Below, piece by piece: positions 2,710 through 11,645 of a stretch of DNA of 11,645 nucleotides. Every line of letters starts with the position of its first letter. Position 1 is the stretch's first letter. Under the pieces are notes generated by a model. The model was not told where the DNA came from and made no database searches. It worked only from the letters and a program-made list of their open reading frames with translations. The DNA comes from a virus, in IMG/VR virus record IMGVR_UViG_3300013103_000848, positions 1-11,645 of that record, one strand, 5' to 3'. Both the position numbers and the translations under genes were made by a program.

Positions 2710-2882
2710 AAAACCAAGAAACTTTAAGTGAGAAAAGTATGACATCTGAAGAAGAATACATCACACCCGAAACAGTGTGGAAAGAAATCTGTAAATTATA
2801 CATTAAATTCACTGATGAACTTGGAGAAAAAATATATGAATTTGATAGGATGATGAAATCTAACAATTCTTCCCAGCAATAA
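2706..2882 (+). CDS. Hypothetical protein, 58 aa (below the ORF-track cutoff)
   Basis: It has an ATGA overlap with the upstream ORF, and AGGAG (2694-2698) lies 7 nt upstream. Translation: MKNQETLSEKSMTSEEEYITPETVWKEICKLYIKFTDELGEKIYEFDRMMKSNNSSQQ. Confidence 0.55.
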   Translation: MKNQETLSEKSMTSEEEYITPETVWKEICKLYIKFTDELGEKIYEFDRMMKSNNSSQQ

Positions 2883-3147
2883 CTTTTTTAACTTTATTTC
2901 TTAAACAACGAGGGCATATCCATTTTTCATCAGGATAAAGCCAAATCAATCCATTTTGATTTTCTGCTGTTGCTTTTCTTAATTCTCTACCGCAAATATC
3001 ACATTTATCAGACAACTCAACAGCAAACTCAACAATGCCTAATCTATCTTTTATTGCATTCTCTAAAATCTCAGAAATATTCACTTCTTTCTCTTTTATC
3101 TTATTATGCAATTCAGAATCTATTGAAGTCATCACCTGTTTTTTCAT
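2860..3147 (-). CDS. Ribbon-helix-helix plus zinc-ribbon transcription regulator candidate, 95 aa; the only minus-strand gene
   Basis: The N-terminus VMTSIDSELHNKIKEKEVNISEILENAIKDRLG fits a CopG/Arc-type RHH pattern. The C-terminus CDICG...CPRC is a four-Cys ribbon. The gene is divergent from the large non-coding region and has its own TATA box. Confidence 0.75.
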   Translation of the reverse strand: MKKQVMTSIDSELHNKIKEKEVNISEILENAIKDRLGIVEFAVELSDKCDICGRELRKATAENQNGLIWLYPDEKWICPRCLRNKVKKVIAGKNC

Positions 3148-3168
3148 ATCAAATAGAAATATATATAC

Positions 3169-3176
3169 TTTATAAA
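3169..3176 (-). promoter_or_regulatory. TATA box (palindromic tttataaa) for the minus-strand regulator gene
   Basis: There are 21 nt between the box and the ATG at 3147 on the minus strand. This matches the spacing class of the + strand promoters. Confidence 0.5.
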
Positions 3177-3226
3177 TATATGTGTTCTGGACAATCTATA
3201 TTTTAAAATTGTCTATCTGGGTTTTG

Positions 3227-3325
3227 ATATATATATATATATGAATATGCATATATATAATAGCCCCCCCACTACGGAGTTATTCTGATTATATATATCT
3301 CTGGAAATATATATATATATATATA
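3227..3325. repeat. Cluster of four (AT)n dinucleotide tracts interrupted by a C7 run; candidate DNA unwinding element
   Basis: (AT)8 at 3227-3242, atatatata at 3251-3259, C7 at 3264-3270, (AT)4 at 3291-3298, and a 19-nt AT alternation at 3307-3325. Confidence 0.9.
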
Positions 3326-3330
3326 AATTC

Positions 3331-3345
3331 GCTTAACCCTTAAGC
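3331..3345. repeat. Short inverted repeat gcttaa-ccc-ttaagc
   Basis: A 6-bp stem with a 3-nt loop, read directly. Confidence 0.6.
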
Positions 3346-3489
3346 CAGGACTTTAAACACCTTTGAAAGCCTCACATAACACTCGGAAGCGTAAATACTA
3401 TTAGATGCTTGACAATTCAAAAAAACTTGATTGCCTATAACTTAAAATTGCCTTTCATTTAAATAATTGTGTTATTACTAGAAAGTGTT

Positions 3490-3505
3490 CCGCTCTCTGG
3501 AGCGG
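3490..3505. repeat. Hairpin ccgctc-tctg-gagcgg
   Basis: A GC-rich 6-bp stem with a 4-nt loop in the gene-free region. Confidence 0.6.
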
Positions 3506-3520
3506 TGCTTTATGGCTTTT

Positions 3521-3535
3521 AGAAAGATTTAAATA
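3521..3535 (+). promoter_or_regulatory. Orphan promoter-like element (agaaaga plus tttaaata) with no ORF downstream
   Basis: It has the same BRE-like purine stretch plus TATA box as the three + strand gene promoters. The 12-mer atttaaataatt occurs at 3467-3478 and 3527-3538. No ATG lies at the expected +1 (about 3558). Confidence 0.4.
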
Positions 3536-3547
3536 ATTCATTCACTT

Positions 3548-3569
3548 GCTTTTTTGCTTGCAAAAAAGC
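3548..3569. repeat. Perfect 9-bp hairpin gcttttttg-cttg-caaaaaagc
   Basis: 3548-3556 pairs with 3561-3569, leaving a 4-nt loop. Confidence 0.8.
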
Positions 3570-3670
3570 CTTCTTCTCATTCCTCTCTTCATCTAAAAGA
3601 CCATAAAGATAAGGGAAATAACAGAAAGAAGAATTGATTATCGGGTGAATTTTGACTTTTTTAGCCAAAA

Positions 3671-3688
3671 TGGGCAAGGTTTTGCCCA
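3671..3688. repeat. Perfect 7-bp hairpin tgggcaa-ggtt-ttgccca
   Basis: 3671-3677 pairs with 3682-3688, leaving a 4-nt loop. Confidence 0.8.
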
Positions 3689-3784
3689 CTCCTCTTCTTT
3701 CGGAGTTCTACCCTCTAATCAATATTGATCATTCTCTAGAATGACTTATTAATTCAAACCAATTCACATCGGTTTATTTCCTAA

Positions 3785-3860
3785 GAACTTCCCCCAACCC
3801 CCTAACCCCCTTCCCCGTGGGAAGGGGGAACTTCCCTCCACCCTCCCCGCCCACCACCCC
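3785..3860. repeat. C-rich (+ strand) / G-rich (- strand) island with two G-quadruplex/i-motif-capable tract clusters, flanked by a 9-nt direct repeat
   Basis: Cluster A: C5-aa-C5-taa-C5-tt-C4 at 3791-3816. Cluster B: C3-t-cc-a-C3-t-C4-g-C3-a-cc-a-C4 at 3834-3860. The 9-mer gaacttccc occurs at 3785-3793 and 3828-3836. Confidence 0.85.
3806..3828. repeat. Perfect 10-bp GC-rich hairpin/dyad cccccttccc-cgt-gggaaggggg
   Basis: 3806-3815 is the exact reverse complement of 3819-3828, with a 3-nt spacer. It is embedded in the C-rich island. Confidence 0.9.
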
Positions 3861-4012
3861 TTTTCTTATTCTTCTTATCTCTTCTTTGCGATTGTTGGAG
3901 TTTTTCTTTTTTTTTTATGTAGGAACCCGCAAAAAAATTTTTTAAAAATATTTTTTCTCTCCGTCATTCTTCAGGGTTCAAAAATATTTCCCAATCCTTA
4001 AATTATCCCCAT

Positions 4013-4029
4013 AGAAAAATCTTTAAATA
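4013..4029 (+). promoter_or_regulatory. Archaeal-type promoter candidate (agaaaaatc plus tttaaata) for the terminase-to-scaffold operon
   Basis: The TATA box lies at 4022-4029, with 19 nt to the terminase ATG at 4049. No SD is present between them. Confidence 0.6.
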
Positions 4030-4048
4030 CTCAGCTACTCTCTTACTT

Positions 4049-5359
4049 ATGAAATATGATATTACCCAGCCATGGAAAACTCTTGACAAATGGCAAAAGG
4101 ACTATATCAATACCCCGCCAGAACAAGACTGCTTTCTTCTAACTGGACGACAATCAGGAAAAACCGCCGCAATGTCCATAAAAATTGTAGAAATGTGTGT
4201 TCACCATTTCAAAAAAGAACAAAATATCTTAATCTGCTCAATCACAGAAAAACAAGCTTATAGAATGCTTGCAAAAGCTCTTGTTTATGCAAAGATAAAA
4301 TATCCAAAATTTGTAATCACAAAAGGCAAAGACAAACCAACCAAACACATAATCAAATTCACAACAGGAGCAGGTATTTACTCCTACGCCGCGGGAGAAT
4401 CAGGCGAAGGATTAAGAGGAGACACAATAAAAAAATTAATGATTGATGAAGGTTCTGGAATGAGCGAAGAATTTTTTGTGGCAACTACCCCTATGTTATC
4501 TGTATCAGGGGGAAGTATGGACATAGCCAGCACTCCAAGAGGAAAATATGACAAAGAAGGAAACGAACTATTTTTTTATAAATGTTCAAAAGATAAAAAT
4601 TTTAAAAAGTTTTATGTCTCTGCTGAGGATTGTCCAAGACACTCAAAAGAATTTCTGCAAAGACAAAAAGAGAGATTTACAAAACTGCAATACGCACAAG
4701 AATATCTGGCACAATTTTTAGATGAAGTTCAATCTTTTTTTGATCTTGACTTAATTAAAAAACTCTGCGTTGAAAAAGTCCCAAAAGAAATAATAACATC
4801 TGGAGATAATTTTATCGGCTGTGATGTTGCCAGAAAAGGAATAGATAAATTCACTTATGAAATCTTTAACAGAACAGGACACAGAGGAAATTACAAATTA
4901 AGACATGTTTTTAATCTCACAACTAACAATATTCCAATTCCAGAAAGCGTAAGAAAAATTATCTCTCTAAATAAATCCTACAACTTTAAAAAAGAATACA
5001 TTGACAGCGGGGGAATGGGAATAGCTGTTTGCGACTTGCTCCGTGAAGATAAAGCAAATAAAAATAAAGTTGTTGAAATAAATAACTCTTCAAGAAGATA
5101 TACAGAAGACGGAGAAAAAAAGAAAACAGGAATTTTAAAAGAGGACTTATATAAAAATCTCGCTGTTCTTATGGAACAAAATAAAATTACTTTTTTGGAT
5201 GATGACGAAGTAAAGAGTTCTTTATCTTCAATCCAATACGAATACAACTCATCAGGACGCTTAATAATCTGGGGTTATAACGACCATATCGCAGAGGGCA
5301 TTGTCAGAGCGGCCTGGTGCATAAAAGACAAAAGTTTAAATATCCTTGCTTTTTGTTAA
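4049..5359 (+). CDS. terL: Terminase large subunit (ATPase plus RNase-H-like nuclease), 436 aa
   Basis: Walker A is GRQSGKT (aa 33-39, nt 4145-4165) and Walker B-like is KKLMIDEGS. Nuclease-domain acidic motifs are FIGCDVARKGIDKFT, YIDSGGMGIAVCDLL and YNDHIAEGIVRAAW. The size and motif order are typical of TerL. Confidence 0.9.
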   Translation: MKYDITQPWKTLDKWQKDYINTPPEQDCFLLTGRQSGKTAAMSIKIVEMCVHHFKKEQNILICSITEKQAYRMLAKALVYAKIKYPKFVITKGKDKPTKHIIKFTTGAGIYSYAAGESGEGLRGDTIKKLMIDEGSGMSEEFFVATTPMLSVSGGSMDIASTPRGKYDKEGNELFFYKCSKDKNFKKFYVSAEDCPRHSKEFLQRQKERFTKLQYAQEYLAQFLDEVQSFFDLDLIKKLCVEKVPKEIITSGDNFIGCDVARKGIDKFTYEIFNRTGHRGNYKLRHVFNLTTNNIPIPESVRKIISLNKSYNFKKEYIDSGGMGIAVCDLLREDKANKNKVVEINNSSRRYTEDGEKKKTGILKEDLYKNLAVLMEQNKITFLDDDEVKSSLSSIQYEYNSSGRLIIWGYNDHIAEGIVRAAWCIKDKSLNILAFC

Positions 5360-5437: not shown

Positions 5438-5803
5438 ATGACAGACACAGGAATATTTGCAACAACAGAAGAAGTCCAGAGAAAAGCTGGAGCAAACGCA
5501 AACGCAACAGCGAAGTCAGAAGCATACATTAATGACTTCATAGCACAAGCAGAAAGTACGATTAATGTTATGTGCAGATATAATTTTTCTGATAAGTTCT
5601 CAACTTTAAACACAGATGTAAAACAAATTCTCAAAGAAGTTGCTTCAAACCTCGCTGCAATCTATGTAATTAACTATGATATGTCTGGTTTTACTTCAAG
5701 AACTGAAGCAGAAAACATGATTAATATTCTCAGAGATGCCTCATTAAGAGGACTTTCAATATTAAGAAATCAACAAGCGGTGACTTTTATAAATGGCGCA
5801 TGA
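5438..5803 (+). CDS. Possible head-tail adaptor/connector (gp6-like), 121 aa
   Basis: Its size and N-terminal pattern (TTEEVQRKAG...SEAYINDFIAQAESTIN) resemble gp6/gp15-type head completion proteins. This call rests on position and pattern only. Confidence 0.45.
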   Translation: MTDTGIFATTEEVQRKAGANANATAKSEAYINDFIAQAESTINVMCRYNFSDKFSTLNTDVKQILKEVASNLAAIYVINYDMSGFTSRTEAENMINILRDASLRGLSILRNQQAVTFINGA

Positions 5804-6221
5804 TTTTAAAAGATTTCCAGAACTGACAAACTCACAAATGCAATTCTATTATTTTGACAGCCCACACCAGCAAATCACAGAAAGTTTTAGGGCAAGAGTT
5901 GTCAAAGTCATAGATGGCGACACAATAAGGGTAACCTGCGATTTTAGGGATTTTGCTTTTCCAATCCGACTGATAGAAATAAACGCCCCTGAAATGAACG
6001 AAGGCGGACAGGAAAGTAAATCATGGCTTGAAAATCAAATAATAGGCGAAGATATAGATGTAATTGTAGACCCAAACTTTAGAGTGGGAAAATGGGGGCG
6101 ATTATTAGGGAGGATTATCAGCAGAGGACTTGACATGGGAGAGGCAAGCATGCGTTTAGGTTTCTCAACAAAATTCGGAGAAAGAAATTTTGAACAGGAG
6201 ATGAAAAGAATATGGTATTAA
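5793..6221 (+). CDS. Staphylococcal nuclease (SNase/thermonuclease) homolog, 142 aa
   Basis: VVKVIDGDTIRV ... IRLIEINAPE ... WGRLLGRI matches the SNase DGDT / RL-x-x-[DN]-A-P-E / GRxL motif order. Asn replaces the usual Asp of the D-[AT]-P-E motif. Confidence 0.8.
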   Translation: MAHDFKRFPELTNSQMQFYYFDSPHQQITESFRARVVKVIDGDTIRVTCDFRDFAFPIRLIEINAPEMNEGGQESKSWLENQIIGEDIDVIVDPNFRVGKWGRLLGRIISRGLDMGEASMRLGFSTKFGERNFEQEMKRIWY

Positions 6222-6646: not shown

Positions 6647-7741
6647 ATGACAGAAAATAAAATAGATAGTGCAATTGCAAGCGACTTAACAAACGCTATG
6701 ACAGACTTCTCAGTGGATAGTGCAACAACCGACGCTAACACAAACCAAAAAGAAACCTCATGGATGGACACAAATTTTCCAAAATATCTTGGATACTACA
6801 AAGATGAGAAAACTCCTGAACTAACTGCAGTCATTGACGCCAAGGCAACATGGACTATCGGAAAGGGCTATAAAGCAGATGAAGAGACAACAATGCTTTT
6901 AGATACAATCAAAGGAAACGGAAAAGATACATTCAACACAATATTAGAGAACGCAATGAGAGTAATGCTGTTGGGCGGAAACTTCTACGCTCATATTATA
7001 AGAGATGATGAAGGGAATCTTATTAATCTAAAACCATTAGACCCGTCGGTGATGAAACATATTTTTGGAAGAGATGGAATGCTCATCAGGTTTGAACAAG
7101 TTTCCAAATTTCCAGGAAACAAACCGAAGAAGTTTGAGCCAGAAGAAATATTTTATCTTTCAAGAAATCGGATAGCTGATGAGATGCACGGGACAGGAAT
7201 AGCCCAGAAATTAAAATTAATTATTGATATGAAGAATGAGGCAATGGCAGACCAGAGAAAAGCGTTACACTGGAATGTCATACCCCGTTGGAAATTCAAG
7301 TTAAAAACAGACGACCCGACAGAAATCGCAGCTTACAAAGCAAAGCAGGACGCAGCAACAGGAACAGGAGAAAATATCTATGAGCCGTTTGATGTTTCTG
7401 AAAGCGAATTAATTTCAGTAGCCCCGAACGCAACATTAAACCCTATGGCATGGATACAATATTTAGACAATTTGTTTTATGAAATGGCAGGAGTCCCTAA
7501 AATCATTCTCGGGGGTTCAGGAGAATTTACAGAGGCATCAGCAAAAATTGCTTATCTTGCTTTTCAGCAGGGAGTTGAGGAAGAACAACTTTTTATAGAA
7601 GAACAGGTTCTGGCACAATTAAATCTTTTGATAGAATTAGAGTTTCCAGCGTCACTGGAGAACGACCTTTTATCTGATAATAAAAAAGATGGCGCTCAAA
7701 ATATAGATGCAAGTGAAACTACTGCAGGGGAGGGACAATGA
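6647..7741 (+). CDS. Portal protein, 364 aa
   Basis: Its size and position lie between TerL and the scaffold/capsid genes. The segments TFNTILENAMRVMLLGGNFYAHIIRDDEGNLINLKPLDP and later helix-rich regions resemble Phage_portal family architecture. An in-frame stop lies immediately upstream of the ATG. Confidence 0.7.
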   Translation: MTENKIDSAIASDLTNAMTDFSVDSATTDANTNQKETSWMDTNFPKYLGYYKDEKTPELTAVIDAKATWTIGKGYKADEETTMLLDTIKGNGKDTFNTILENAMRVMLLGGNFYAHIIRDDEGNLINLKPLDPSVMKHIFGRDGMLIRFEQVSKFPGNKPKKFEPEEIFYLSRNRIADEMHGTGIAQKLKLIIDMKNEAMADQRKALHWNVIPRWKFKLKTDDPTEIAAYKAKQDAATGTGENIYEPFDVSESELISVAPNATLNPMAWIQYLDNLFYEMAGVPKIILGGSGEFTEASAKIAYLAFQQGVEEEQLFIEEQVLAQLNLLIELEFPASLENDLLSDNKKDGAQNIDASETTAGEGQ

Positions 7742-9747: not shown

Positions 9748-10158
9748 ATGGCAGACGAAGCAATCCTAAGGCTTGAAACAAGACAACCAATTAGTTTCAA
9801 TAAAGCCTCTGCAACTGCATTTGAAAAGGGTGCTTTTGTAGATTTAAATGATGATTTAACAGCTGTCGCTGCAACAGCAGACGGGCATGTTGGCGGAATT
9901 GTCGCTGTTGAAGAAGTGGCAAACCAGCACAGCACTGTGGCTGTTTATCGTGAGGGCTTTTTCTATGGAACAGCGTCGGCAGCAATTACTATCGGACAAA
10001 CTCTTGCTTTAACAGGCTCAGGGAATAAACTTAAACCATCTACTGCCTCAGATGTAGCAAGCAAAACCGTAGGCATAGCATTAGAAGCAGCAAGCGGTAA
10101 TGGCGAGCAATTCTTATTTGAACTAAAACCAGGCGTGGGAGTTAACGCATTCGCATAA
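9748..10158 (+). CDS. Head decoration / capsid cement protein candidate (DUF2190-like), 136 aa
   Basis: It is a Gly/Ala/Val-rich beta protein (GAFVDLNDD, GHVGGIVAVEE, VAVYREGFFYG, GQTLALTGSGNKL, VGIALEAASGNGEQFLFEL). It lies immediately upstream of, and is translationally coupled (TAATG) to, the capsid gene, the usual arrangement for DUF2190-type decoration proteins. Confidence 0.6.
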   Translation: MADEAILRLETRQPISFNKASATAFEKGAFVDLNDDLTAVAATADGHVGGIVAVEEVANQHSTVAVYREGFFYGTASAAITIGQTLALTGSGNKLKPSTASDVASKTVGIALEAASGNGEQFLFELKPGVGVNAFA

Positions 10159-11024
10159 TGGCAGATACAGCAGGACAAGCACTAATAAGAGGGATTAACC
10201 TTGATAAGAAAGCAAGAAACTATCAGAATGAAGAATCTATTTTTTACAAGGAAGTTAATGTTAGTGTATCCTCATCAAGAGAAATACGATATTATCAAAA
10301 AACATCAGGATATTTAACTGCAACTTCTCCAGCGAGCATTGTAATCGCAGAGGGTGCTTTGCCTTTTGTTTTAGAAACTTCTTGGACAAGAAACACAGCT
10401 TACACAAAAAAGTATTCTGTTGATAGCCCTTTAATTACTGTGGAAGATGAGAAAGACAGCGAAGTTAGGGTATTTATGGATAATCTTGAGGAAATTACTG
10501 GAGCTGTTGTTAATGAAAGAGAGGGAGACATCTGGGATGTAGCAACAGAAGACCAGACACCAGTTAATATTAATTCTGTAACTTCTACTGCTGCGTGGGA
10601 TGCAGCCTCAGGGCAGGACCCTATGGAAGATGTAGCTGAAGCAGTGCAAAAGATTAGAGAACAAACTAAAAGGAAAGTTGTAAATCCTAAATTATATGTT
10701 TCTGCAAAAGGAGAAAAAGATTTAAAGGTTTGGATTACTTCAATGAAAGGAAGTTCTTGGAGTGAATTAGCTTCTAAAGTAGTTGTGGATGGAGTTTTGA
10801 CACGATTTGGCGGATGTTCTGTTGTAGTTTCTGAAAATGTAACTGCTGATTATGCTCTTGTTGCGGACTTGAAAAAATCTACTGAATACTGGGAGTTCTT
10901 TCCTTTGAAAACTGCAATAATCACAGAAGAATTAATCGGAAGAAAAATAAGAGTGATGACAAACGGAATTGCAGTTTTAACAAGACCAAAATTCAACTGC
11001 TTGATTACAAACACAGAGGCATAA
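10158..11024 (+). CDS. Major capsid protein, HK97-fold candidate, 288 aa
   Basis: It follows the scaffold and decoration genes. The segment TAAWDAASGQDPMEDVAEAVQKIREQT...NPKLYVSAKGEKDL resembles the conserved W-x-(n)-P-[IM]-x-D and following helix region of HK97/lambda-E-type capsid proteins. The call was made by eye. Confidence 0.75.
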   Translation: MADTAGQALIRGINLDKKARNYQNEESIFYKEVNVSVSSSREIRYYQKTSGYLTATSPASIVIAEGALPFVLETSWTRNTAYTKKYSVDSPLITVEDEKDSEVRVFMDNLEEITGAVVNEREGDIWDVATEDQTPVNINSVTSTAAWDAASGQDPMEDVAEAVQKIREQTKRKVVNPKLYVSAKGEKDLKVWITSMKGSSWSELASKVVVDGVLTRFGGCSVVVSENVTADYALVADLKKSTEYWEFFPLKTAIITEELIGRKIRVMTNGIAVLTRPKFNCLITNTEA

Positions 11025-11435: not shown

Positions 11436-11597
11436 ATGGCGGCTGGAGATGTGACTGTTCAGATTGTGGAAAATGCAACTGCGAGTTCAGTGGATACTGC
11501 TATCACAGCAATGAGAAACGGTGCTAATGATAAATGGTTAATGACTTCTATAAATAATGGACAGGATGTTTTGATTGTAAATATTGAGGAAGCATAA
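11436..11597 (+). CDS. 53-aa protein homologous to both termini of the LamG protein (candidate anchor module)
   Basis: It starts directly after the upstream stop, with GGGGTG 9 nt upstream. Translation: MAAGDVTVQIVENATASSVDTAITAMRNGANDKWLMTSINNGQDVLIVNIEEA. See the finding on the nested LamG insertion. Confidence 0.6.
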   Translation: MAAGDVTVQIVENATASSVDTAITAMRNGANDKWLMTSINNGQDVLIVNIEEA

Positions 11598-11645
11598 AAT
11601 GGCTCAGGGAGATGTTACCTGTAATCTAACAAATGCTTTACCTAA
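11541..11645. repeat. Terminal direct repeat copy 2 (exact duplicate of 1..105)
   Basis: Base-by-base identity with 1-105. Confidence 0.95.
11599..11645 (+). CDS. 5' end of the LamG gene (duplicate of 59..105, truncated by the window end)
   Basis: It lies within terminal repeat copy 2 and is identical to 59-105. Confidence 0.8.
   Translation, partial: MAQGDVTCNLTNALP

Follow-up and report, generated by a model that had tools for sequence, protein, structure and literature searches.

What is a short island of cytosine runs doing in the only sizeable non-coding region of a small, AT-rich virus genome? The question is raised by IMG/VR virus record IMGVR_UViG_3300013103_000848, all 11,645 nt of which (the window, below) were analysed. 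An initial annotation, made from the letters alone, had described a strand-asymmetric C-rich island at 3791-3860, with two quadruplex-capable clusters around a perfect dyad, and had likened its core to the origin recognition boxes (ORBs) of archaea. We find that the island is real, non-random and conserved, and that it lies beside a promoter-like block which accompanies similar C-tracts in related viruses, on the strand that encodes the large terminase subunit (TerL). We tentatively read it as a strand-asymmetric upstream control or boundary element of a predicted late promoter, with a probability of roughly 0.3, and rank this reading first because the coupling to the promoter-like block is the sole direct comparative signal.

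Anatomy of the island

In the map of open reading frames (ORFs), positions 3148-4048 (901 bp) form the sole large non-coding region, every other intergenic gap being shorter than 130 bp. This control region separates a divergently read gene for a ribbon-helix-helix (RHH) protein from a plus-strand operon led by TerL, and within it the island has the following parts.

3783-3793, plus strand: first copy of a bracketing repeat, AAGAACTTCCC, a near copy of the family box GCGAACTT
3791-3816, plus strand: cluster A, C5-AA-C5-TAA-C5-TT-C4, with the minus-strand G-quadruplex (G4) motif GGGGAAGGGGGTTAGGGGGTTGGGGG; G4Hunter score -2.88
3806-3815 and 3819-3828: perfect 10-bp dyad, CCCCCTTCCC-cgt-GGGAAGGGGG, complementary at 10 of 10 positions
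3826-3836: 11-bp palindrome with the second copy of the bracketing repeat, GGGAACTTCCC
3832-3860, plus strand: cluster B, the CCCACC-type repeat TTCCCTCCACCCTCCCCGCCCACCACCCC, its C-tracts at 3834-3860 giving the minus-strand G4 motif GGGGTGGTGGGCGGGGAGGGTGGAGGG; G4Hunter score -2.40

Both clusters, the dyad (3806-3828) and the direct repeat GAACTTCCC at 3785 and 3828 are letter for letter as first described. The phrase ‘almost pure C/T/A’ for 3791-3860 was right about the richness in C: the 70 nt comprise 41 C, 11 A, 10 G and 8 T, against a genome-wide C fraction of 0.15 and 23 C in the next C-richest 70-nt stretch outside the island. It slightly overstated the purity, because nine of the ten G make up the right arm of the dyad.

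We took as a G4 motif at least four tracts of three or more G, separated by loops of 1-7 nt, with an absolute G4Hunter score above about 1.5, and by this definition both clusters are G4 motifs. Scores in a 25-nt window reach -2.88 over 3775-3824 and -2.40 over 3827-3874, and the largest absolute score elsewhere in the genome is 1.52. The tract pattern itself matches twice genome-wide, both times on the minus strand (3791-3816 and 3834-3860), where 0.023 matches are expected per first-order Markov-simulated genome, so the two predicted quadruplexes of the initial annotation have no counterpart elsewhere in this virus. The plus strand carries the four C-tracts per strand that an i-motif requires. 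The dyad is the minimum-energy fold of the region as single-stranded DNA (-12 kcal/mol, z = -2.66, equalled by none of 200 shuffles), and the computation bears out the suggestion that this hairpin shares, and so competes for, two tracts of cluster A.

Five of the 26 TTCCC/GGGAA pentamers in the genome fall inside 3789-3836. The bracketing repeat extends to 16 nt at 88% identity; judged by its letters, the GAACTT repeat is better taken for a pair of near copies, AAGAACTT and GGGAACTT, of the promoter-upstream box of the family. An independent ENA assembly of the same genome (L030; L numbers denote the loci compared) has an identical island, which is therefore no assembly artefact.

The description as G4 motifs plus hairpin thus holds as a property of the sequence, and the ORB label does not. 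Two other class assignments were rejected. As an intrinsic terminator (GC stem, at least five T within 0-2 nt), the dyad fails in that it runs into AACTTCCC with no T-run, and the terminator scan is silent there; true intrinsic terminators do occur elsewhere in relatives (L010 1768, L045 393). For a tRNA-derived attachment site, the window has neither a tRNA nor an integrase, and the island is unlike a tRNA.

Coupling to a promoter-like block in related viruses

The intergenic region was compared with 40 related loci by sensitive blastn, and then by profile searches that took in further loci. Positions 3832-3948 of the window align with L040 at 75% over 118 nt, while TerL is only 34% identical between the two; blastn also aligns this region with L010 and L002, and the profiles extend the alignment to L041/42, L045 (TerL 80% identical), L048, L047, L096, L113, L082, L015/L106 and others. 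The conserved unit reads, from left to right, a C-tract block, a 10-35-nt spacer, GCGATTnTTrr, a T-rich stretch of about 17 nt and (A)TGTAGGAnCYCACArAAAAATTTT. Downstream of the island, the window has these parts of it.

3861-3887, plus strand: pyrimidine-only, TTCTTA-like spacer (equivalent spacers in relatives are 10-35 nt)
3888-3899, plus strand: upstream box GCGATTGTTGGA, at the position of an archaeal B recognition element (BRE) or a bacterial -35 box
3901-3917, plus strand: T-run TTTTTCTTTTTTTTTT, which occupies the TATA position and doubles as a terminator-like oligo-T tract
3919-3949, plus strand: core motif TAGGAACCCGCAAAAAAATTTTTTAAAAA, 52 bits in nhmmer against the family profile, with a predicted transcription start near 3926-3931

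A CCCACC-type repeat stands 10-35 nt upstream of the block in at least eight lineages, whose TerL proteins are 34-80% identical. The tracts upstream of the GCGATT box are these.

Window: CCCTCCACCCTCCCCGCCCACCACCCC
L040: CCCACCACCCACCCCACCCACCCTCC
L042: CCCCCCACCCACCCCACCCACCCACC
L045: CCCACCACCATTTCCCAGCCACCCACCCC
L010, L096, L048: similar tracts

Read on the minus strand, these tracts are quadruplex motifs of the GGGTGGGTGGGG type, their loops being 1 nt long. A strong C-tract (G4Hunter -1.5 or below) is present in the 150 nt upstream of the block in 5 of its 12 GCGATT-type copies and in 2 of its 44 GCGAA-type copies, compared with 0.8% of random windows, and strong tracts in this position are almost always C-rich on the TerL strand, a G-rich one being found once. 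The computations thus support a recurrence of G4-prone C-tracts on the same strand and in the same place among relatives.

The block itself is strongly polarised. Its strict CYCACA-type motif matches 89 times on the TerL strand and four times on the opposite strand in about 125 loci. Of 79 distinct instances, 66 have a GCGA box (consensus AGCGAAYTTTAA) at 38-41 nt upstream of CYCACA, with GCGAAYTTTAA at -40 to -27 relative to it; some 30 instances have an ATG 13-23 nt past the first C, opening either TerL or a 35-45-aa zinc-ribbon ORF. The strand bias and the ATG shortly after the block therefore give it the look of a promoter with a short leader. An exact 20-mer of the core motif occurs five times in 2.9 million IMG/VR contigs, four of them in this virus family. 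The bipartite arrangement, AGCGAAYTTTAA (or GCGATTnTT), a spacer of about 27 nt and TAGGAC-CYCACArAAAATTTT, is seen at 3885-3950 of the window, in L003 (2767-2822), L114 (916-970), L042 (12363-12424) and about 75 other places; it is far better conserved than the surrounding proteins and is present in two copies in L019, L022 and L029.

The block thus looks like the promoter of the late genes for packaging and structure, although we infer both this identity and the start site. By its spacing, the geometry would fit an archaeal BRE/TATA promoter that starts at CYCACA and has a short conserved leader. In promoters of that type a purine-rich BRE immediately precedes an A/T-rich box whose centre is about 26 nt ahead of the start. 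Two other approaches to the region gave nothing usable: a degenerate CCCACC..GCGATT scan of IMG/VR was too loose (more than 100 chance matches and one family member, L180), and a Rho rut-like depletion of G upstream of the block (G at or below 5%) was seen in just 2 of 76 instances. Between or beside C-tract and block, some relatives have short tandem repeats with an iteron-like look (L048 40-112, L032 100-200, L039 420-450, L092 370-398, L042 12480-12500), for example five copies of a 15-mer in L048, four of AGTAGCC-containing units in L032, and (GA)n in both L092 and L042.

Cluster A and the dyad have a different distribution. The exact dyad has no match in IMG/VR, and cluster A plus dyad are absent from the closest relative, L045. 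They nevertheless belong to a recurrent hairpin class, C6-8, 2-3 nt, C6-7(x), a 3-4-nt loop and (x')G6-7, with members in at least 12 lineages (L020/21, L036, L051, L061, L071, L084, L085, L092, L095, L124, L029 and the window). The loop-proximal stem varies and is always complementary (T/A, TT/AA, TC/GA, TTCCC/GGGAA, GCC/GGC). Because these changes are compensatory across lineages, the pattern argues for selection on pairing. Eight further lineages have a mirror class (G-arm, TCC loop, C-arm, C-tract) which keeps two C-tracts per G-tract on the TerL strand, so that the strand asymmetry is conserved as well. The outer tract repeats the inner arm in L020, L085, L124 and L071, down to its T or TC, which makes alternative Watson-Crick hairpins possible and counts against a mirror-repeat triplex. 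An H-DNA triplex was accordingly rejected: the order C-run, C-run, G-run is present, but the outer tract copies the Watson-Crick arm instead of mirroring the purine arm (CCCCCCTC occurs twice in L085 and in L124, CCCCCCT occurs twice in L020, and the outer tracts of the window do not mirror GGGAAGGGGG).

A second kind of hairpin, in which the 13-nt loop GTGGGYTGCCTCA is nearly invariant and the stems covary fully, is found in at least 11 lineages (L003 1661, L005 800, L040 111, L041 2205 on the minus strand, L071 384, L079 69, L082 33/59/84, L085 248, L092 51, L109 232, L111 2377) and is absent from the window. It keeps to the TerL strand throughout, always precedes both the promoter block and the C-tract or hairpin, and may be a structured RNA or a recognition element in single-stranded DNA.

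What the island may do

Starting from what is directly seen, namely the anatomy of the island, its conservation, its strand bias and its adjacency to the promoter-like block, we infer a control function that would involve either a binding protein or non-B structure in vivo. The island would be a composite cis element in the single control region of the virus, 70-145 bp upstream of the predicted start of late transcription (about -145 to -70). Its first part (3791-3828) would be the selected GC hairpin, with a C-arm preceded by more C-runs, and its second part (3832-3860) the CCCACC repeat joined to the GCGATT / T-run / TAGGAnCYCACArAAAAATTTT block. The module would act at the DNA level and set the activity of the late promoter. 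A protein could bind the array of C-tracts and TTCCC half-sites, or negative supercoiling behind diverging polymerases could lead to extrusion of the hairpin and a G4 on the template strand.

A candidate binder of the island or block is the RHH-zinc-ribbon protein, which by its sequence may be a DNA-binding regulator. Its homologues in L096 (645-896), L051 (1215-1490), L002 (563-811) and L088 (3480-3746) are all encoded on the plus, TerL strand, 250-350 nt downstream of the conserved block, and theirs is the first recognised gene downstream of it, a typical autoregulatory layout. In the window the gene (2860-3147, minus strand) is read away from the intergenic region. By comparison with the relatives, the window copy is therefore inverted and lies on the far side of that region, so the control region has been rearranged. 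A search of PDB sequences with this protein as query gave no significant match.

Several observations weigh against promoter control. The distance between hairpin and promoter ranges from 120 to 930 nt among relatives, which is loose for a promoter-proximal operator, and many relatives have a GC-rich multi-hairpin array in place of the C-tracts, so that the common requirement may be structure rather than promoter control. By eye the geometry of the block also fits a weak bacterial -35/-10 promoter, and the host bins of the family conflict; a sigma-70 scan (TTGACA, 16-18 nt, TATAAT) found no site at 3880-3950, the arrangement seen by eye (TTGGAG, 19 nt, TAGGAA) being a poor match. Downstream of the block, the window has first 118 nt devoid of ORFs and then another promoter-like element. 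Finally, a genome with no recognisable replication genes needs an origin somewhere, and 3148-4048 is the obvious place.

The arrays consist of 3-10 GC hairpins (L002 95-188, L008 2230-2790, L015 3335-3446, L024 3730-3793, L088 2500-2650, L097 1000-1130), with apical sequences GC-TCC-GC, C-TTCG-G or 11-nt loops such as TCGCTTCGCTC or TCACTCCGTTC. Some of the loops are of the UUCG type on the plus strand, and on the minus strand there are GNA triloops (GGA, GAA, GTA). GNA triloops are unusually stable in single-stranded DNA.

Besides the island and block, the control region contains the following.

3220-3330: (TA)n-rich low-complexity block, flanked by 22-nt direct repeats; five families of direct repeats and five inverted repeats were detected
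3490-3505, plus strand: hairpin CCGCTC-tctg-GAGCGG, with a TTTAAATA box about 25 nt upstream of it at 3459-3466; terminator-like match
3548-3569, plus strand: hairpin GCTTTTTTGC-tt-GCAAAAAAGC; terminator-like match
4008-4030, plus strand: second, standard promoter-like element CCCCATAGAAAAATCTTTAAATA, with a TATA box ending 19 nt before the TerL ATG, a leaderless distance, and no Shine-Dalgarno sequence

The direct repeats (3196-3217 and 3435-3456, 82% identical) bracket the (TA)n block, which is possibly an unwinding element or a mere low-complexity expansion. A 42-nt block containing TTTAAATAAT (3438-3479, plus strand) is 79% identical to L040 394-355 on the minus strand; its orientation relative to TerL is opposite in the two genomes, and in both it points towards the C-tract block. 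A candidate ORF on the minus strand at 3519-3689 has no homologue in the roughly 125 related loci.

Possible, if still doubtful, is that the island is a host-dependent replication origin or an auxiliary part of one, in which the GC hairpin and C/G-tracts beside a T- or AT-rich stretch mark the site of opening or priming; one possible route would be a transcript forming an R-loop or a hybrid G4 at the G-tracts. The genome has just one such island, within its only sizeable non-coding region, (TA)n and AT-rich tracts are near, relatives have short tandem repeats there, and the hairpins with covarying stems keep to a constant strand. Precedents for G-tracts in such places are Haloarcula oriC1 (PMC3936714), the human cytomegalovirus (HCMV) lytic origin, oriLyt (PMC11350156), and CSB II (conserved sequence block II) of mitochondria (PMC4176368). 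Neither the window nor a set of 74 accessory ORFs from nine near-complete relatives has a recognisable protein for replication or integration, and the argument leans largely on this negative, drawn from genomes with many tiny unannotated ORFs. Against an origin, there is no initiator gene, neither canonical ORBs nor DnaA boxes are enriched (TTATNCACA boxes match 13 times against 14.5 expected, a single match being intergenic), the conserved promoter block is directed away from the island, and GC skew is inseparable from coding-strand bias.

It is unlikely that the island instead forms the 3' domain of a plus-strand, structured non-coding RNA some 300-430 nt long. Transcribed from one of the TTTAAATA boxes (3459 or 3529), such an RNA would terminate in the T-runs of 3861-3917, and the island would be its unpaired C-tail with one hairpin. 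In AT-rich genomes, RNA genes usually show up as GC-rich structured islands, the region is bracketed on the plus strand by TATA-like boxes and oligo-T tracts, and relatives keep a fixed order on the TerL strand (GTGGGYTGCCTCA hairpin, C-run hairpin or C-tract, T-run, promoter). The window has no GTGGGYTGCCTCA hairpin, however, Rfam 15 gave no relevant match in it or in eight relatives, and the T6 at 3655-3662 should stop an archaeal polymerase before the island. All stems are pure Watson-Crick, and RNA is therefore indistinguishable here from single-stranded or cruciform DNA.

A narrower version of the origin hypothesis, a transcription-primed and initiator-free origin, is decidedly unlikely. 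Host RNA polymerase would move leftward across the polypyrimidine template from a palindromic A7T6A5 stretch or a neighbouring TATA box, its purine- and G-rich RNA would form a stable R-loop or hybrid quadruplex where the G-tracts lie (3860-3791), the polymerase would come to a stop at the hairpin, and a host DNA polymerase would extend the RNA 3' end. If true, this would be a prokaryotic-virus counterpart of the mitochondrial light-strand promoter (LSP) with CSB II, or of ColE1 RNA II.

Very unlikely, too, is a pac or cos packaging site, that is, a GC-rich palindrome about 230 bp upstream of TerL that is nicked or bound by terminase. In lambda, cosN and cosB lie upstream of Nu1, and cos packaging is associated with an HNH gene beside the terminase gene; herpesvirus pac1, with GC tracts on either side of a T-rich element, would be another model. 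The island occurs once per genome, immediately upstream of TerL, and has a perfect dyad; nucleases adjoin TerL across the family (HNH in L008, weakly resolvase-like in L032, SNase-like in the window). Yet the assemblies are circular or permuted with break points that differ between assemblies, locus ends show no clustering at a single island position and no common terminal sequence, the extra C-runs and the strand asymmetry are unexplained by a symmetric nicking site, the hairpin is up to 1.4 kb and several genes from TerL in relatives, and no small terminase subunit was identified.

An archaeal ORB bound by host Orc1/Cdc6 is extremely improbable: the TTCC...GGAA dyad symmetry followed by a G-run recalls one, and promoter geometry and the TerL match to Halogranum tailed virus 1 hint at an archaeal host, but TTCC and GAA are 6 nt apart (TTCC-N6-GAA, TTCCCCGTGGGAA) and not 4 nt as in the invariant core (e.g. 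TTCCAGTGGAACT; PMC1904270), the element is single-copy, the canonical 13-mer TTCCAGTGGAAAC with up to three mismatches is not enriched (5 matches where 3.7 are expected, and none of them in 3148-4048), no ORB pair flanks an AT-rich element (GGGAAGGGGGAAC is unique, its near matches only overlapping C-tracts of the same island), no orc1/cdc6 gene was found in the window or nine near-complete relatives, and the dyad is not conserved in L045, the equivalent stems of relatives being plain C6-7/G6-7 with no TTCC/GGAA core.

The virus family and its control region among known systems

Bases 1-105 of the window are repeated at 11541-11645, and this terminal overlap indicates a complete, circularly closing genome with a unique length of 11,540 bp. 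Its genes include the following.

44-838: LamG-domain fibre-like protein
838-2882: about ten tiny ORFs
1943-2299: zinc-ribbon protein, 118 aa
2860-3147, minus strand: RHH and zinc-ribbon protein, 95 aa (Pfam CcdA 1e-4; PHROG Arc-like repressor 5e-4)
4049-5359, plus strand: TerL (Pfam Terminase_6N 3e-11; PHROG 2 at 1e-33), opening a long plus-strand operon
5438-5803: head-tail connector-like protein
5793-6221: SNase-like nuclease, downstream of TerL
6647-7741: portal
9748-10158: scaffold/decoration-like protein
10158-11024: HK97-like capsid protein

A TerL search gave 925 homologues at E < 1e-30, and none of the contigs among the 120 best matches listed is longer than 12.7 kb. The closest isolate match is Halogranum tailed virus 1 at 24.6% identity, and the portal and capsid proteins have no tblastn match in 50,697 GenBank phage records. 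Viruses of about 11-12.7 kb with terminase, portal and HK97-like capsid thus appear to form a very large, uncultured and undescribed family, whose members, if tailed, would be among the smallest tailed viruses known. The host bins of its contigs disagree (a Woesearchaeota archaeon, several bacteria of the candidate phyla radiation (CPR) and others, the names including Staskawicz- and Nealsonbacteria, Patescibacteria, Actinomycetota and Spirochaetales). One relative has a tRNA-Met (CAT) gene (L008 1639-1713, 57.8 bits in Rfam), which is not host-diagnostic and has a TTTAAATA box about 14-21 nt upstream.

Other observations concern gene content. A 35-45-aa mini-ORF with a double-CxxC zinc ribbon lies immediately upstream of TerL in L003 (2821-2931), L004, L016, L017, L036 and L012; elsewhere TerL is preceded by an HNH endonuclease (L008 3517-3792, PHROG 3.7e-8) or a weakly resolvase-like protein (L032), and in the window by none of the three. 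A 53-aa ORF at 11436-11597 is paralogous to the last 50 or so residues of the LamG protein (...NDKWLMTSINNG...IEEA and ...NDKYLMAVVNNK...IEEA respectively), pointing to a small domain duplicated beside the fibre-like gene. About 1.2 kb of L009 (1-1190) is 66% GC compared with 39% for the whole contig, which a chimeric assembly or an acquired segment may explain.

Among known control regions, that of simian virus 40 (SV40) and other polyomaviruses combines an origin palindrome, an AT tract and 21-bp GC-box repeats (CCGCCC) between divergent transcription units. The present genome resembles it in being a small circular double-stranded DNA whose control region is single, compact and non-coding and holds a perfect palindrome rich in GC, an AT/T tract that is strand-asymmetric and doubles as TATA region, and C-rich, G4-prone repeats just upstream of the (predicted) promoter. 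It differs in that the SV40 initiator, large T antigen, binds GAGGC pentamers, whereas no initiator is recognisable here; the sequences are unrelated and the present host is prokaryotic. The CT element of c-MYC, nuclease hypersensitive element (NHE) III1, is a supercoil-responsive G4/i-motif element 115-142 bp upstream of promoter P1. It too has a CCCCACCCTCCCC-type C-rich strand, placed here about 70-145 bp upstream of the predicted start, with the G-rich strand as template, and in both cases non-B structures compete with duplex, here as predicted from sequence. Unlike the island, the c-MYC element is eukaryotic and nuclear, is bound by hnRNP K, CNBP and NM23-H2, and has no built-in hairpin.

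Yeast mitochondrial ori sequences consist of GC clusters A, B and C plus a promoter, and clusters A and B form a hairpin. Mitochondrial priming elements share with the island the placing of GC or G-tract clusters beside a promoter in an AT-rich genome, in a replicon that, in mitochondria, needs transcription-derived primers. In human mitochondria, CSB II downstream of LSP primes DNA replication (PMC4176368). Unlike here, the mitochondrial promoter reads through the G-rich element; the block in the window points away from the island, and a leftward promoter is hypothetical. Herpesvirus pac1 has a T-rich core flanked by C/G tracts, and cis-acting replication and packaging signals of herpesviruses, which share the terminase/portal/HK97-fold lineage with the present family, use G/C tracts. 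A G4 is essential in HCMV oriLyt (PMC11350156). Size, spacing and sequence of oriLyt and pac1 differ from those of the island.

The nearest origin-related resemblance is to Haloarcula hispanica oriC1, where a G-rich inverted repeat, GGGGAGGGGG/CCCCCTCCCC, enhances the origin (PMC3936714) and has arms that resemble CCCCCTTCCC/GGGAAGGGGG. The oriC1 arms flank an AT-rich unwinding region between two inverted ORBs beside cdc6, whereas the arms here are 3 nt apart. An ORB itself shares the TTCC..GGAA dyad and G-string (PMC1904270), with the difference that core spacing is wrong here and there is neither an ORB pair nor cdc6.

The island thus adds to the GC-cluster and non-B-DNA elements of viral and organellar control regions, and is newly found in an undescribed family of small viruses. 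In genomes of this size, copying, the late switch and packaging must all be answered in one non-coding region. Three conserved strand-specific elements have been identified there: the C-run-flanked hairpin, a near-perfect GGGTGGGTGGGG-type G4 motif, and a promoter-like block of two parts that has a conserved leader. Function has seldom been assigned to conserved, position-specific quadruplex motifs of prokaryotic viruses, and these elements supply defined oligonucleotides and mutations with which G4 and hairpin function could be tested in a prokaryotic virus.

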